From NCBI GenBank assembly GCA_947625625.1, contig CANQPC010000001.1, positions 25,258-89,257 of the forward strand: a stretch of 64,000 bases of DNA, given 5' to 3'. The notes under the pieces were generated by a model. That model saw only the letters and a list, made by a program, of their open reading frames with translations, was not told the origin of the DNA and made no database searches. Source of the stretch: an uncultured Bacilli bacterium. GTDB taxonomy: Bacteria > Bacillota_I > Bacilli_A > RF39 > UBA660. The position numbers and the translations under genes were made by a program. Below, one piece after another: positions 58,073 through 60,455 of this stretch (its first letter is position 1; every line of letters begins with the position of its first letter).

Positions 58073-58095
58073 AAAGTGGTGACCAGTATGGAATT
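58073..58095. repeat. attL: 23-bp copy of tRNA-Glu 3' end
   Basis: Exact match to 60433..60455. Confidence 0.6.
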
Positions 58096-58309
58096 GGTTT
58101 TCATTGATGTAATCGGAAAGGAAGATTTGGATTATTATGTAATTTATGATTTCCATGATAATATAATAGCATATTGTGATAATTTAGATGAATTAAGTAA
58201 ATTTACTAATCGACTAAAAAAGCATCTTAAGTATGAATTTAAAAATAGAGACGTTGTTTATTATTTTTATGAAAATACTATTAGAAGAATTTATAAATTT
58301 TTAGATTAG
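58088..58309 (+). CDS. Islet hypothetical protein (start within attL repeat; track gives longer 58043 start)
   Basis: ORF track. Confidence 0.3.
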   Translation: MELVFIDVIGKEDLDYYVIYDFHDNIIAYCDNLDELSKFTNRLKKHLKYEFKNRDVVYYFYENTIRRIYKFLD

Positions 58310-58322
58310 GAGAATTAGTAAA

Positions 58323-58523
58323 ATGAGAATGAAATTATTAGATTATATTATTAAAGAGTCAAAAAATAAGAAATTAGTTTCTACAATAATTAACCCTACA
58401 TTAGAAGAATGTGATTTTTTATATAAACATAAAATATCTGTTTTAAAAACTAGAACAAAATTTATTTTTAGTCCTACTAATTATGTTGAATTATATGATA
58501 CATTTGAATTTTTTAGGGAATAA
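58323..58523 (+). CDS. Islet hypothetical small protein
   Basis: ORF track; AGGAGAA RBS. Confidence 0.3.
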   Translation: MRMKLLDYIIKESKNKKLVSTIINPTLEECDFLYKHKISVLKTRTKFIFSPTNYVELYDTFEFFRE

Positions 58524-58776
58524 CAAAATTAATAAAAATTAGCCGTAAAAAGGTTAATTTTTTTCGTTTTCGTTCAATTGGCACTTTTTTTATGTTATAC
58601 TTTTATTGGAATTATCATTTATTAAATTCATTGGGATACTATCTTCTAACTTTATAACTAAATAAAAAAAAGAAAGATGATACAGCAAAAGACATTATAA
58701 TTATTTAATTGTCTTAATAATTTGATAAAAATTAGTTTTTAATACTTATTTTTATCATTATTTGAAATTAAGGTAA

Positions 58777-59045
58777 GCACATGTTGCTACGGCGTAGCAA
58801 TGTGCGTTATTATCTTTAAAATATAGATTTCCTGTCTGTCAATGTTCCGTGGAATAAAGCTACTGCATTTATGCCGCGAAAGACATTGATAGACATAGCG
58901 GAAAGATAATTGTTATTCGGAACGAAAAGTCCGTTATGGTGCTTTTCGTTTGGTACTAATTAAAAAAATTTTAAAAAATGGGAGCAATCTCCCATAGGAG
59001 TACTACGACACCTCCTATGGAGTGCATTGTGCATTGAACTTTTTG
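58777..59045 (+). other. Highly structured GC-enriched non-coding region (nested inverted repeats) upstream of small hydrophobic ORF; possible sRNA / structured leader
   Basis: Stems: GCACATGTTGCTAC/GTAGCAATGTGC; TGTCTGTCAATGT/ACATTGATAGACA; ACGAAAAG/CTTTTCGT; CATAGGAG/CTCCTATG; no ORF. Confidence 0.3.
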
Positions 59046-59052
59046 AAGGGGG

Positions 59053-59235
59053 TTGGCTAATGACATGGAGACAAGTTTATCAAGTGTTTTAGAGAATGTA
59101 GGTAGTGTATTTAATTCAATGATAGGTTATGTTGGAAGCATATGTAATACTATTTCTAAAAATCCACTTTTATTAATTGGTTTTTGTATTCCTATTGCAT
59201 TTGCCGTTGTAACTTTTGTAAAAAGAATGTTCTAA
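59053..59235 (+). CDS. Small hydrophobic protein (60 aa, C-terminal TM) - toxin/holin-like
   Basis: Strong RBS GAAGGGGG; C-terminal TM PLLLIGFCIPIAFAVVTFV. Confidence 0.4.
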   Translation: MANDMETSLSSVLENVGSVFNSMIGYVGSICNTISKNPLLLIGFCIPIAFAVVTFVKRMF

Positions 59236-59433
59236 ATTTTTTCTTTTTTTTGATTAATTTTCCTCACTTTATCTAATTTCATTTATTTTTATTCCCTCCT
59301 TACTTTAGATACGATTTATTGGGTCGTATTTTTTTTTTATTTAATTTTATGTTTTTGTGATATACTTAATTTAAGAGAGGTGATTTGACAAAAATAGATG
59401 AAATAATTATAATACTCGCCTGAGGTGAGGAAA

Positions 59434-60429
59434 ATGAGCTTTGAAGATGCTTATGAGGAATTTAAAATCTATGCTTCAAAACGGCATAAAAAAGAAAGTT
59501 TTGGAAATATTACTCGCGATTTTAATTGTAAGATATTACCTTATTTTGAGGGGAGAAAGATAGAGTCATTAACTAAGAATGATATTCTTAGGTGGAAAGA
59601 TGATTTATTATCTTTTGATTATAGTAAAAAATATCTTTCAAAATTATATTATGTTTTTTGTATTTTCTTTGATTATTGTTGCCTTTATTATGATATAGAA
59701 GATAATATTGTTAGAGATGTTGGTAATTTTAAAATTCAGCCTAAAAAGGTAAAAAGTGATTTTTATACTAGACAAGAGTTTGAACGTTTTATTACTGGCT
59801 TTGATAATATAGTTTATAAGTCATTTTTTATACTTATGTTTTATACTGGTTGTCGTCCTAGTGAGGCTATGGCTTTGAAGTTTAGTGATGTAAGAGGCAA
59901 GTATCTTTCTATTAATAAGTCAATAGAGAGAAGAGGGGAAAGAAATATTTGTACTACAAAAAATGTTTATTCTGTTAGAGATGTTATTCTTTGTAATAGA
60001 GTTCTTTCCTGTATTTCTGATTTGAAAAAATATTATATAATTAAATACGGGCAATTTTTCGAAGATTATTTTATCTTTGGAGGCATTAAGCCATTAAGTG
60101 GTACTTCTATTGATAGATATAAAAAAAAGGCTTGTGAGAGGGCTAAAATTAGGTGTATAACTCAACATCAATTTAGACATAGTTATGCTACTTATTTAAT
60201 TAGTAATGGTATTCCTATTAATACTGTTTCTAGATTGCTAGGACATAGTAGTGTTGATACTACTGCTAGAATTTACGTACATCAAGATTTGAGCCAAGAA
60301 AAAAGAGTATTAAATACTCTTAATTCGCCGATATTTTCTTTTGGAAATATTACTCGCGATTTTAATTGTAAAATATTACTTTTTTTAAAAAGAAAAATAT
60401 CTATCTTAAAACATTTTTCAATGTTTTAA
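59434..60429 (+). CDS. Tyrosine site-specific integrase/recombinase (phage integrase family) with repeat-derived C-terminal extension
   Basis: C-terminal catalytic region RHSYATYLISNG..LGHSSVDTTARIYVH (R..H..R..Y); GAGGTGAGG RBS before ATG 59434. Confidence 0.75.
   Translation: MSFEDAYEEFKIYASKRHKKESFGNITRDFNCKILPYFEGRKIESLTKNDILRWKDDLLSFDYSKKYLSKLYYVFCIFFDYCCLYYDIEDNIVRDVGNFKIQPKKVKSDFYTRQEFERFITGFDNIVYKSFFILMFYTGCRPSEAMALKFSDVRGKYLSINKSIERRGERNICTTKNVYSVRDVILCNRVLSCISDLKKYYIIKYGQFFEDYFIFGGIKPLSGTSIDRYKKKACERAKIRCITQHQFRHSYATYLISNGIPINTVSRLLGHSSVDTTARIYVHQDLSQEKRVLNTLNSPIFSFGNITRDFNCKILLFLKRKISILKHFSMF
59499..59539. repeat. 41-bp direct repeat copy 1 (inside 5' end of int)
   Basis: TTTTGGAAATATTACTCGCGATTTTAATTGTAA(G)ATATTAC; 40/41 identical to 60339..60379. 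Confidence 0.6.
60339..60379. repeat. 41-bp direct repeat copy 2 (3' end of int)
   Basis: See copy 1; encodes the same FGNITRDFNCKIL peptide at both ends of Int. Confidence 0.6.
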
Positions 60430-60432
60430 TTC

Positions 60433-60455
60433 AAAGTGGTGACCAGTATGGAATT
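60433..60455. repeat. attR: 23-bp repeat overlapping tRNA-Glu 3' end
   Basis: Exact match to 58073..58095. Confidence 0.6.

Follow-up and report, generated by a model that had tools for sequence, protein, structure and literature searches.

A probable helper-dependent mini-inovirus satellite integrated at a tRNA-Glu gene of a Mollicutes-like gut Bacilli bacterium

Analysis of a 64-kb stretch of DNA from an uncultured bacterium (the window) indicated that the segment at positions 58,073-60,455 is probably an integrated, helper-dependent mini-inovirus satellite of Mollicutes-like gut Bacilli. The element is without rep, zot and all other morphogenesis genes, and tblastn with RepB and Zot of two related loci (L012 and L008) found no Rep or Zot in the element or anywhere in the window. 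Since the replication and assembly genes have been lost, spread of the element probably depends on a full-size relative. On sequence evidence it is one of a previously undescribed family of mini elements of 2.4-2.8 kb, which consist of an integrase, att sites, an sso and dso region, a coat gene and two or three small ORFs. The coordinates of its features are given in Table 1.

Table 1. Features of the element and its insertion site, in window coordinates
Feature	Position	Strand	Basis or remark
attL core (23-bp identity block)	58073..58095	.	exact repeat of 60433-60455
Left-end ORF, 60 aa, TTG start	58127..58309	+	homologues next to attL/attP in relatives
orf66	58323..58523	+	so far seen only in mini-type elements
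Hairpin H1, loop ACGGCGT	58777..58805	+	predicted ssDNA fold
ssoA-like single-strand origin hairpin (candidate)	58833..58895	+	long hairpin in ssDNA fold
Double-strand origin nic locus (candidate)	58992..59035	+	pMV158 RepB nick layout
Major-coat-protein homologue, 56 aa from ATG (60 aa from TTG 59053)	59065..59235	+	homology and position
Intrinsic-terminator-like hairpin and T-run after coat gene	59309..59338	+	read from sequence
int promoter TTGACA-17-TATAAT, 12/12	59385..59413	+	best promoter match of region
Tyrosine integrase, 331 aa, intact	59434..60429	+	Pfam and PHROG matches
int direct repeat copy 1 (int codons 22-38)	59499..59546	+	94% identical to copy 2
Intrinsic-terminator-like hairpin and U6, within int codons for EKRVLNTL	60299..60321	-	fold and covariation
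int direct repeat copy 2	60339..60386	+	between minus-strand terminator and att core
Conserved inverted repeat AAAACATT-TTTC-AATGTTTT adjoining core	60408..60427	.	most family members
attR core (23-bp identity block)	60433..60455	.	exact repeat of 58073-58095
tRNA-Glu(UUC), integration target	60437..60513	-	ARAGORN and Rfam

The insert is bounded by two exact copies of AAAGTGGTGACCAGTATGGAATT, which is the longest direct repeat of the window. No third copy was found in the window with up to 2 mismatches allowed, and 100 shuffles gave 0 matches. The preliminary description had read this 23-mer as an att repeat overlapping the 3' end of tRNA-Glu(UUC); the repeat proved exact, ARAGORN and Rfam agreed on the tRNA, and the idea of a generic repeat found no counterpart in the window. 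Because of the position and minus-strand orientation of the tRNA gene, the attR copy comprises the last 19 nt of tRNA-Glu, including CCA, and 4 nt past its end. The distance from att start to att start is 2,360 bp. Within it lie a tyrosine recombinase gene and three short ORFs, one of which encodes a hydrophobic peptide, and about 530 bp are non-coding. This agrees with the earlier inventory of a bounded segment of about 2.4 kb with a tyrosine integrase, two tiny ORFs, a hydrophobic peptide and a structured non-coding region. Host DNA lies to the left of attL, where the bidirectional terminator of a 160-aa gene is found. The tRNA-Glu gene is the final gene of a Lys-Ile-Glu tRNA cluster that reads towards the element, with promoter-like sites at 60791-60764 and 60644-60616 on the minus strand.

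An empty site, whose existence had been proposed as a check, was found in a related organism (loci L093/L094), with one core copy and an uninterrupted tRNA-Glu 3' end. The four genes that flank the insert in the window are syntenic there (S41 peptidase, Hydrolase_2, VCA0040-like and a 159-aa gene), and they are followed by a terminator and then directly by tRNA-Glu, so that the junction is the same as at attL without the insert; this relative is distant, with a flanking protein 54% identical. Four observations support insertion by the integrase into the 3' end of tRNA-Glu, namely the att repeats, the intact integrase, the empty site of this relative and the circular relatives that carry attP. 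The inverted repeat adjoining the core was recognisable, in slightly varied form, in most family members, whatever their tRNA target.

The integrase matched Pfam Phage_integrase (PF00589, 1.6e-21) and PHROG integrase (3e-55), and its catalytic R-K-H-R-H-Y residues (R141, K176, H245, R248, H271 and Y281) fall in invariant columns of the alignment. Searches yielded 678 homologues, and the window holds no second integrase. The distance from the end of int to the tRNA 3' end was 10-120 bp in 17/17 related loci in which the tRNA was recovered, these tRNAs being Glu, Asn, His or Leu. The int promoter is followed by a 5' hairpin, CTCGCC-TGA-GGTGAG, which covers the Shine-Dalgarno sequence, and both promoter and hairpin are kept upstream of int in L012, L097, L009, L107 and L115.

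Close relatives of int, with 77-78% identity, are all in full-size prophages at the same site between the VCA0040-like gene and tRNA-Glu. The integrase family belongs to inovirus genomes of 5-9 kb that carry genes for Zot and a pMV158-type RepB and insert themselves at the 3' ends of tRNAs. In L012, Zot matched PF05707 (4e-7) and the PHROG Zot-like family (4e-11), and RepB matched Rep_OBD (1e-30) plus RepB_C. Full-size elements bounded by att repeats at tRNA 3' ends measured 5.1-8.7 kb, and the 7.5-kb contig L011 is probably a circle, since its ends overlap by 35 nt and it contains an attP junction. Members of the same integrase family, with 46-59% identity, were found in Dulem virus 71 (PP511497) and bajarodino virus 55 (PQ006125), which are deposited circular Inoviridae genomes (PMC11281440). 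Phages of the L012/L097 type occupy the same tRNA-Glu site in sister taxa, and the modules of the window element are close to those of full-size relatives (integrase about 78%, coat 75% and dso 89-92% identity). By homology, the modules as well as the integrase family all trace to filamentous inovirus genomes, and the ICE lineage that had been considered at the outset was abandoned. ICEs and their remnants had also been considered through their marker genes; no relaxase, coupling protein or type IV secretion Pfam matches were found among the ORFs of the element.

Besides int, the element has no ORF of more than 100 aa. The start of the left-end ORF is preceded by a conserved RBS, AATCGGAAAGG, and its homologues adjoin attL/attP in both full-size and mini relatives, although only 11 homologues were found among 5.8 G proteins. 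Its AF2 model (pLDDT 84) had no significant fold match in PDB or BFVD. The next ORF, orf66, had no Pfam or PHROG match and was found neither in the phage database nor in IMG/VR. It was represented by six small clusters among 1.84 G representatives, and the clusters that were looked up (4/4) lay on contigs with mini-type gene order, L118 being only partial.

The 60-aa hydrophobic peptide is, by homology and by the position of the gene in relatives, a putative inovirus major coat protein, whose relatives are known by sequence. It is 70-75% identical to a 58-59-aa gene of the full-size relatives, which in L012 is flanked by the second small ORF on one side and by large membrane and adsorption-like proteins on the other. 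Its N-terminus is acidic, its core hydrophobic and its C-terminus basic; it had no Pfam, PHROG or PDB match, and was present in every mini element with that region recovered. The terminator-like hairpin after the coat gene (ATACGA..TCGTAT, then T9) is missed by the terminator scan because its stem has fewer than three G-C pairs.

The 321 nt at 58740-59060 fold strongly as ssDNA (dG -53 kcal/mol, z = -7.3), and this structured non-coding region appears to be a pair of rolling-circle origins, an ssoA-like one with a partial match and a RepB-type dso. In the ssoA-like hairpin, for which Rfam has no family, an RSB-like motif, TTATGCCGCGAAA, at 58869-58881 matched 12/13 positions of the consensus TTATGCCGAGAAA(ATTT), and TAGCGG at 58896-58901 matched 5/6 of the CS-6 consensus TAGCGT, both consensus sequences being those published for ssoA (PMC4598088). 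A single RSB-like motif, placed in a hairpin whose stems covary, is found in each of L008, L021, L022, L024, L012 and the mini L009, and L023 has the motif alone, also once. The L009 motif follows the RSB consensus at the first 16/17 positions, and L107 has an exact TAGCGT. The loop of hairpin H1 recurs with different stems in L107, L102 and L095/L023; a role as packaging signal or as part of the minus-strand origin would be a guess in either case.

In the candidate nic locus, the arms of IR-I lie at 58992-59000 and 59012-59020, and the hairpin loop between them carries the nick sequence TACTACGAC at 59001-59009, which occurs once in the whole window, with the nick predicted at G59007/A59008. 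Two 7-nt iterons, GTGCATT, follow at 59022-59028 and 59029-59035. The pMV158 RepB nick, 5'-TACTACG/AC-3', likewise lies in a hairpin loop that is followed by two 7-bp proximal direct repeats (PMC1851628), and TACTACGAC is identical to it. In full-size relatives this arrangement recurs between Zot and Rep, immediately upstream of the rep region; its stems covary and its iterons differ from lineage to lineage, such counterparts of the GTGCATT pair being found in 9 other loci. The GTGCATT pair is identical in L012, L011, L023, L095, L097, L102 and the mini L116, and over the full stretch 58770-59040 the element matches the DNA between Zot and Rep in elements of the L012/L102 type. In a regional repeat scan, no set of tandem repeats that could be the distal iterons of a bind locus stood out downstream of the nick. 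The preliminary view that the insert has no replication or structural genes was thus right in that there is no rep gene, and has to be amended in that the hydrophobic peptide is a coat homologue and the non-coding region holds putative origins.

Mini elements of the same kind were found elsewhere. The locus L107 carries one at another tRNA, with 2,520 bp between its att repeats and the gene order of the window element. In L115, a 30-nt terminal overlap closes the sequence into a probable circle of 2,782 bp, which contains int, attP, the left ORFs, orf66, the dso and the coat gene, and no rep, zot or tRNA; an overlap of 30 nt equals k-1, as is expected if Logan assembles with k = 31. L116 and L117 are circularly permuted contigs with attP junctions and the mini gene order, and L113/L114 show an attP junction followed by that order, L113 being recovered only in part. 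The same gene order was thus seen in L107, L115, L116 and L117 and partially in L113 and L118, and same-order minis or contigs with attP junctions came from at least 7 other samples besides the window. The 2,146-bp element L009 is built from the same parts, which differ there in order and orientation. The nick hairpin was present in every mini checked, and the sso-like hairpin was also present in the window, L107 and L009. Both orf66 and the order IG-coat-int are common to the window, L107, L115, L116 and L117, and the recovered part of L113 fits; neither was seen in any full-size relative examined, and no single deletion would turn the full-size gene order into that of the minis. Comparison of the four ORFs between the window and L107 gave dS values of at least 1 (saturated) and dN/dS values of 0.17-0.42, with 0.27 for the left-end ORF, 0.28 for orf66 and 0.17 for the coat homologue. 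All four ORFs are under purifying selection.

From these parts we infer a life cycle that would use replication in trans and packaging by a helper. Int would excise the element as a circle, and RepB of a co-resident full-size relative with the same iterons would nick TACTACG/AC and start rolling-circle replication, while the complementary strand would be primed by the sso. The nick hairpin and the GTGCATT pair match the cis sites of the candidate helpers L012, L011, L023, L095, L097 and L102; a helper of the L012/L097 type, with GTGCATT x2, is the proposed candidate. The assembly machinery of the helper may then extrude the small ssDNA as a short filament, in which helper and satellite coat proteins would be mixed. 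We know of no packaging signal for this phage group. In a new cell, Int would be made from its own promoter and the circle would integrate into a tRNA 3' end. The circular contigs could also be excision products or tandem arrays that were never replicated or packaged.

The segment might instead be an inert remnant of a full-size inovirus prophage at tRNA-Glu, which lost its replication and morphogenesis genes by deletion and rearrangement and is decaying slowly and immobile. In line with this, rep, zot and all virion genes but the coat gene are absent, no helper phage lies within the 64-kb window, minis are a minority of the related loci recovered by the integrase search, and the window element itself was found only in the integrated state and in one species (L001-L003, 99.97-100% identical). 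However, the att repeats are perfect, and the integrase, the promoter, the coat gene, the small ORFs, the nick site and the iterons are intact. The same unusual order was found at another tRNA and in contigs with attP junctions, one of them a probable circle, and saturated dS was accompanied by low dN/dS in every ORF, the mini-specific orf66 included. Independent decay would not give one parts list repeatedly, and we consider such a remnant unlikely. Between the decayed prophage or ICE remnant and the satellite that the preliminary description had offered side by side, the satellite fits much better, given the same-order elements elsewhere, the 2.78-kb circle and the purifying selection.

It is quite improbable that the minis are recurrent defective-interfering miniphages that, like those of f1/M13, arise de novo from full-size phages during rolling-circle replication, and that integrate occasionally, with no separate lineage. 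The mini-specific orf66 and gene order argue against it, the deep divergence among minis points to long persistence as minis, and classical miniphages are not known to carry genes or an integrase. On the other side, rolling-circle replicons are deletion-prone, the differing order and orientation of L009 could mean an independent origin, and the integrase, coat and dso of the window are closest to full-size relatives, which implies that modules are shared. The element could also be pictured as a minimal integrative element independent of any helper, which would excise and reintegrate, or enter cells as DNA, and would be neither replicated nor packaged in the manner of a phage. Its hydrophobic peptide would then be a membrane or exclusion factor instead of a coat protein. 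The intact nick and sso sites, with iterons that match Rep-encoding relatives, are hard to explain without Rep action, and the hydrophobic protein resembles the coat-position gene of bona fide inovirus genomes at 70-75% identity. This makes helper independence very improbable, even though the data show no packaging, the small hydrophobic protein lacks a database match and the host replicates an integrated element passively. A helper-dependent satellite is the reading that we prefer.

A further feature of the element concerns the control of int. A 48-nt segment near the 5' end of int is repeated with 94% identity near its 3' end, and a 26-nt core of it occurs exactly twice in the window. An equivalent repeat of lineage-specific sequence was present in 22/23 loci listed, among which three duplicate another locus' sequence. 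The minus-strand hairpin was found in 18/18 loci folded, even where the protein motif diverged. In the covariation analysis, 87.5% of cells were paired and 6/8 pairs were changed on both sides, with a score of 0.519 compared to 0.238 in shuffles, and 0/500 shuffles reached 0.519. The duplex between the complement of copy 2 and the int 5' mRNA was predicted at -70.7 kcal/mol, versus a non-cognate mean of -24.6. The copy of the 5' int segment downstream of int, together with the covarying terminator, suggests antisense control of int via read-through of the tRNA operon. Such read-through into the right end of the element would give a 3'-trailer RNA of about 140 nt, which would end at the conserved minus-strand terminator inside int. 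The body of this RNA, complementary to the copy of the int 5' coding segment, may turn int off after integration, and by an antisense RNA supplied by the host the element would sense its own integrated state. The joint proposal, of an undescribed class of Rep-less, Zot-less mini-inovirus satellites together with a family-wide shut-off of int by host-supplied antisense RNA, is put forward tentatively, as possible rather than probable.

Filamentous-phage satellites have so far come essentially from Vibrio cholerae (RS1 and TLC-phi). Since inovirus surveys detect their targets via pI/Zot, elements that lack pI are invisible to them. If the satellite reading is true, the mini family would be among the smallest integrating phage-like replicons, and satellite-helper biology would extend to ssDNA phages of uncultured gut Bacilli. 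The element would be a compact natural chassis, with an att site, integrase, two origins and a coat gene. The int 5' copy by the att site and the embedded antisense terminator would form a putative device by which host tRNA transcription tells the element whether it is integrated.

Inovirus prophages whose att sites lie in tRNA genes have been described (Roux et al. 2019, PMC6813254). The window element resembles integrative inoviruses in the att logic at a tRNA 3' end and in its integrase, which is of the same family (46-59% identical to those of deposited genomes, and as much as 78% to those of metagenomic prophages). Its coat gene, left-end ORF, intergenic region and RepB-type origin are homologous to theirs. 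Pf4 and Pf5 of Pseudomonas are tyrosine-integrase inoviruses at tRNA genes. In contrast to the integrative inoviruses of 5-9 kb, the window element is 2.36 kb and is without the pI/Zot ATPase, the Rep gene and the minor coat and assembly genes. RS1 and TLC-phi of Vibrio cholerae are small integrated satellites derived from filamentous phages, packaged by helpers and without morphogenesis genes (PMC3545932, PMC6744903). The likeness lies in the small size, the integrated state, the filamentous-phage descent and the missing morphogenesis genes. RS1 and TLC-phi each bring a replication initiator (RstA and Cri), integrate at dif through host XerCD and are not known to carry a coat gene. The window element, by contrast, has no Rep, has its own tyrosine integrase and a tRNA att site, has kept a coat gene and belongs to an unrelated host group, low-GC gut Bacilli.

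Miniphages of f1/M13 keep the intergenic region with the origins and use helper products in trans for replication and packaging; they arose by deletion in the laboratory and are not known to carry genes or to form lysogens, whereas the mini family has an integrase, an att site and conserved ORFs on which purifying selection acts. With pMV158-family plasmids the element shares the nick TACTACG/AC in a loop, the two 7-nt direct repeats by the right arm and the RSB-like ssoA motif, and its full-size relatives share the Rep_OBD/RepB_C protein. No DNA match to the element was found in PLSDB. Unlike these plasmids, it has no rep and is an integrating phage derivative. The proposed control of int is comparable, by analogy only, to lambda sib, in that int expression would depend on sequence across att and hence on integration state. 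In lambda, sib provides an RNase III site in the sense transcript, which is lost on integration. The arrangement proposed here would be its mirror image, the antisense RNA being made only once the element is integrated downstream of the host tRNA operon.

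The 23-mer AAAGTGGTGACCAGTATGGAATT was present in exactly two copies in the window, with no third copy in the 64 kb at up to two mismatches, where none is expected by chance. It is the longest direct repeat in the 64 kb, and the second strongest repeat also lies within the element. ARAGORN and Rfam agreed on a tRNA-Glu(UUC) as the final gene of a Lys-Ile-Glu tRNA cluster, and from its position the right att copy takes in 19 nt at the tRNA 3' end, with the CCA among them, and 4 nt beyond. Hence, the repeat pair, the tRNA calls and the contents of the 2.36 kb between the repeats (a tyrosine integrase, two small ORFs, a hydrophobic ORF and structured non-coding DNA) showed that the preliminary description, which had placed an integrase-mediated insertion at the tRNA 3' end, was accurate.

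Features of the element and its surroundings (positions in the window; amino acid identity and dN/dS refer to the comparison with the mini element L107, in which synonymous divergence is saturated, dS at least 1, for all four ORFs)
Feature	Position	Description	Identity	dN/dS
attL	58073-58095	copy of the 23-mer
Left ORF	58127-58309	plus strand; conserved ribosome-binding site AATCGGAAAGG	63%	0.27
orf66	58323-58523	plus strand	56%	0.28
Weakly folding DNA	58524-58760	no strong ssDNA fold
Strongly folding DNA	58740-59060	dG -53 kcal/mol, z = -7.3 as ssDNA
Upstream hairpin	58777-58805	conserved loop (A/G)CGGCG(T/C), covarying stems
Hairpin resembling a single-strand origin (sso)	58833-58895	long; holds TTATGCCGCGAAA; upstream of the dso
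Arms of the double-strand origin (dso) hairpin	58992-59000, 59012-59020	nick motif in loop
Nick motif TACTACGAC	59001-59009	sole copy in the window
Iterons GTGCATT GTGCATT	59022-59035	after the dso hairpin
Coat ORF	59065-59235	plus strand	70%	0.17
int leader hairpin	59414-59433	CTCGCC-TGA-GGTGAG, covers the Shine-Dalgarno sequence
Integrase (int)	59434-60429	plus strand	47%	0.42
int repeat, copy 1	59499-59546	48 nt of the int 5' coding region
Terminator-like hairpin	60299-60321	minus-strand reading
int repeat, copy 2	60339-60386	94% identical to copy 1; between catalytic domain and att core
Inverted repeat	60408-60427	8-bp arms, AAAACATT-N4-6-AATGTTTT; 5-14 bp from att core
attR	60433-60455	copy of the 23-mer
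tRNA-Glu(UUC)	60437-60513	minus strand
Promoter-like sites of the tRNA cluster	60791-60764, 60644-60616
Tandem duplication	30288-30347	30-nt unit, 93% identical, within a coding region
Palindromic terminator-like pair	42603-42635, 48003-48035	33 nt, 91% identical, 5.4 kb apart
tmRNA gene	50740-51097	minus strand; tag peptide GNSYKNAVAYA

The suggested search for an empty site in related genomes was carried out and was successful. The 160-aa gene adjoining attL has only three relatives among 5.8 billion proteins, and a relative 54% identical to it is carried by the contigs L093 and L094 (L-numbers denote the related contigs and loci recovered). The same four genes as in the window, encoding an S41 peptidase, a Hydrolase_2 protein, a VCA0040-like protein and a 159-aa protein, are followed in both contigs by a terminator and, about 10 nt on, by an uninterrupted tRNA-Glu 3' end, which is identical to the tRNA side of attR and gives the empty site as it stands in a fairly distant relative. 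The insert was present in all same-species contigs (L001-L003). The inverted repeat next to the att core, within the int codons for the conserved tail 'ILKHFxMF', is kept in most related loci irrespective of the tRNA target; proteins may bind it as part of the att arm. Elsewhere in the window, the palindromic pair flanks a block of plus-strand genes, and no integrase or att-like repeat was noticed adjoining the tmRNA gene.

The tyrosine recombinase is intact (Pfam 1.6e-21; PHROG integrase 3e-55), with the catalytic R, K, H-x-x-R, H and Y all in invariant alignment columns, and measures 331 aa from the ATG chosen by the gene callers or 334 aa from a GTG. Its promoter matches the consensus TTGACA-17-TATAAT at 12/12 positions. 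The leader hairpin directly 3' of this promoter is conserved in L012, L097, L009, L107 and L115. No second integrase was found in the 64-kb window. Nearly all of the 678 integrase homologues come from uncultured gut Bacilli, the named genome records being 'Candidatus Ventrenecus', 'Mycoplasma sp. CAG:472' and Bacilli MAGs. The int gene is convergent with a tRNA (Glu, Asn, His or Leu) and ends 10-120 bp from its 3' end in all 17 related loci with a recovered tRNA, and the att repeats identified for 12 related loci bound elements of 5.1-8.7 kb in all except one.

These full-size elements are filamentous phages. The 7.2-kb prophage L012, located at the same site between the VCA0040-like gene and tRNA-Glu as the element in the window, encodes a Zot/pI ATPase (PF05707 4e-7; PHROG Zot-like 4e-11), a pMV158-type initiator (Rep_OBD 1e-30 and RepB_C), a 58-aa coat-like protein and large signal-peptide and membrane proteins. 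The 7.5-kb contig L011 is probably a free circle, since it has a terminal overlap and an attP junction. The best integrase matches in an annotated phage collection were complete circular Inoviridae genomes from faecal viromes, namely Dulem virus 71 and 59 and bajarodino virus 55, 49 and 33 (cf. PMC11281440), which are annotated with Zot, a replication protein and a recombinase; IMG/VR scans with the integrase, the integrase alignment and orf66 returned no relatives. Inovirus prophages with att sites in tRNAs were already known (PMC6813254). The integrases closest to that of the window (77-78% identity) all belong to full-size prophages that occupy this tRNA-Glu site in sister taxa. The site is a hot spot, holding inovirus prophages of 7-8.8 kb in L012, L023, L095, L097-L099, L102 and L103.

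No homologue of Rep or Zot was detected in the element or in the whole 64-kb window, and the element had no DNA match in PLSDB. Its putative coat ORF, previously described as a 60-aa hydrophobic peptide, shares 70-75% identity with the gene that full-size phages carry in the coat position, and had no sequence match in the PDB. Most relatives have a homologue of the left ORF after their attL or attP. The AF2 model of the left ORF was confident and gave no significant fold match in the PDB or BFVD; matches to GIY-YIG-like proteins were weak and below any threshold, and an assignment as an excisionase or repressor found no support. About 530 bp of the element contain no ORFs, and part of this DNA folds very strongly. 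An Rfam search of 55-64 kb in E-value mode yielded three tRNAs and sub-threshold noise, with the structured region unmatched.

This structured DNA corresponds to the intergenic region of the phages. In the nic locus of pMV158, the nick sequence 5'-TACTACG/AC-3' lies in the loop of IR-I, and two 7-bp proximal direct repeats contacted by RepB adjoin the right arm (PMC1851628). The dso of the element has the same anatomy. The same nick motif recurs in the relatives between Zot and Rep, shortly before the rep region. It again lies in hairpins, whose stems differ through compensated changes; these stems were compared by inspection as MAFFT alignments of the short hairpins were partly out of register. 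The iterons of the relatives are lineage-specific (GTGAATT in L026, GTGAAAT in L008, GTGTCAG/GTGTCAA in L017, GGTCAAT/GGTCAAG in L020, GTGACGC and variants in L009), and those of L012, L011, L023, L095, L097 and L102 are identical to the iterons of the window. In the sso-like region, TTATGCCGCGAAA matches the RSB motif of ssoA, TTATGCCGAGAAAATTT, at 12/13 positions, and TAGCGG is found where the CS-6 consensus is TAGCGT (PMC4598088). L008, L021, L022, L024, L012 and L009 each have a single RSB-like motif per element, set in a hairpin whose stems covary, and L023 has one copy of the motif alone. Phages of the L012/L102 type have adjoining sso and dso between zot and rep, in the order of the window. 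Since the dso and the sso-like hairpin are kept and there is no Rep gene, the element appears to retain the cis-acting half of a rolling-circle replicon whose initiator is gone. The upstream hairpin is also found in the mini element L107 (about 707-739) and in the intergenic regions of L102, L095 and L023, and may be a packaging signal or may belong to the minus-strand origin.

Other elements of this small size were also found. L009, from another MAG, is a 2,146-bp element at tRNA-Glu with a left ORF, a second small ORF, the nick hairpin, a coat-like ORF, the RSB hairpin and int, and its origin-coat module is inverted. Its int has a TGA two codons past the catalytic Tyr (2139-2200) with the conserved KRVL motif continuing in frame, which points either to a nonsense mutation of recent date or to a host in which TGA is a sense codon. 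Searches with the left ORF and orf66 recovered closer mini relatives. The 2,620-bp contig L107 (one of three) has 28-nt att repeats 2,520 bp apart at another tRNA 3' end, and its order is identical to that of the window: left ORF, orf67, the upstream hairpin, sso-like region with the exact TAGCGT, dso (ACTACGAC and GTGAATT twice), coat, int promoter and int. The left ORF, orf66, coat and integrase are under purifying selection. Six clusters of the orf66 family were found among 1.84 billion representatives, and the four looked up were all on contigs with mini-type gene order. L113 and L114, from two samples, contain int, an attP with only a tRNA fragment, left ORF, orf67, the intergenic region and the start of the dso. 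The ends of the 2,812-bp Logan contig L115 overlap by 30 nt to give a 2,782-bp circle; such an overlap is the k-1 expected of a circle if the Logan assembly k is 31. This circle contains int (294 aa), attP, two left ORFs, orf66, dso, coat and the int promoter, with no rep, zot or tRNA. L116 and L117 are circularly permuted mini-type contigs, L116 having the iterons of the window, and the partial 1.1-kb contig L118 holds two left-type ORFs and an orf66 homologue. The paralogous left ORFs are in tandem in L115 (1092-1511 of the rotated circle), L116 (915-1133), L117 (631-1050) and L118 (41-444), one being of the YYVIYD... type found in the window, where it stands alone, and the other of the NYFILY... 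type found in L012. No single deletion was found that would convert the full-size gene order into the mini order.

The window element and its closer mini relatives share the unusual intergenic region-coat-int order and the mini-specific orf66 at different tRNA targets. They are known both integrated and with an attP junction, in one case as a contig that assembles into a circle. Since order and orf66 are shared over a long evolutionary distance, across targets and in both forms, they look like a persistent mobile lineage. The element is thus probably a helper-dependent satellite of filamentous phage, an integrated Rep-less mini-inovirus. The preliminary description had left a decayed prophage remnant and a satellite-like element as alternatives; the conserved mini family and the circle favour the latter. 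An inert remnant is unlikely, as the order and orf66 common to the minis are unlike the random decay of one prophage. Recurrent de novo origin of miniphages is decidedly improbable. Least credible is a helper-independent element.

As a satellite, the excised circle would depend for its replication on RepB from a full-size phage in the same cell that has GTGCATT iterons. Phages of the L097/L099 type have these iterons and the most similar coat (75%), and are common (17 contigs). The complementary strand would be primed at the sso, the small single-stranded circle would be extruded by the helper machinery into short filaments, and Int would integrate the circle in a new host. A helper of the same att specificity would need tandem integration with the mini element.

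The second strongest repeat of the window consists of two copies within int. An equivalent repeat was present in 22/23 loci compared, a set in which three duplicate the sequence of another locus and which includes free circular virus genomes, and by inspection also in L107, L113 and L115. Its sequence is lineage-specific and the two copies track each other. Since copy 2 of L009 is out of frame and after the stop codon, the constraint is on nucleic acid. In all 18 loci folded, copy 2 is closely preceded on the plus strand by an A-run and a hairpin, which read on the minus strand as a hairpin followed by U5-8, the shape of an intrinsic terminator. The hairpin is embedded in int codons and persists where the protein motif EKRVLxTL has changed. 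Its cells were paired in 87.5% of cases, 6/8 pairs had changed on both sides, and the covariation score was 0.519 versus 0.238 in shuffles (0/500 reached 0.519), a conservative count given the partly out-of-register alignments.

The tRNA cluster reads towards the int 3' region, and the empty site has a bidirectional terminator directly after the tRNA. Integration shifts this terminator to the attL side, so that the phage-borne hairpin would end the tRNA transcript. The resulting trailer of 94-152 nt (138 nt in the window) would have its complement in the int mRNA around codons 22-38, with predicted cognate duplexes of -22 to -71 kcal/mol (window -70.7) versus a non-cognate mean of -24.6. Because the int promoter looks constitutive, we propose that an antisense trailer from tRNA-operon read-through may silence int once integrated. 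No promoter for the antisense RNA was evident in the circular form, and a literature search gave no precedent for such control of int by tRNA read-through. A simpler explanation is that the hairpin insulates int from tRNA read-through, which accounts for the terminator but leaves the int repeat unexplained. Several other explanations of the repeat were set aside. Arm-type Int sites do not fit an integrase that begins with a SAM-like core-binding domain and has no N-terminal arm-binding domain; there is no third copy on the other arm, and the copies co-vary between lineages through conservative and synonymous-type changes, which fits nucleic-acid complementarity or conversion better. The repeat is unlike the nick site, which argues against two RepB origins, and, judging by rolling-circle plasmids, two direct origins would tend to delete int. 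A protein-level repeat is contradicted by L009, where the copies are not spaced by whole codons and the second is past the stop codon, a DGR-like template/variable repeat by the lack of a reverse transcriptase, and a leftover of tandem elements by the lack of an att copy between the two repeat copies.

On its gene content, the element would not be classed as an inovirus genome by the usual definition, since the tests for pI/Zot and for Rep were both negative. An integrated Rep-less mini-inovirus with helper-matched origins, its own coat gene and a conserved family is new; no description of such an element was found in the pI-based survey of inoviruses or among the filamentous-phage satellites known so far. 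In its proposed function the element would be a filamentous-phage satellite like RS1 and TLC-phi. Unlike these two, it encodes no initiator, supplies the integrase and tRNA att site itself, and retains a putative coat gene.
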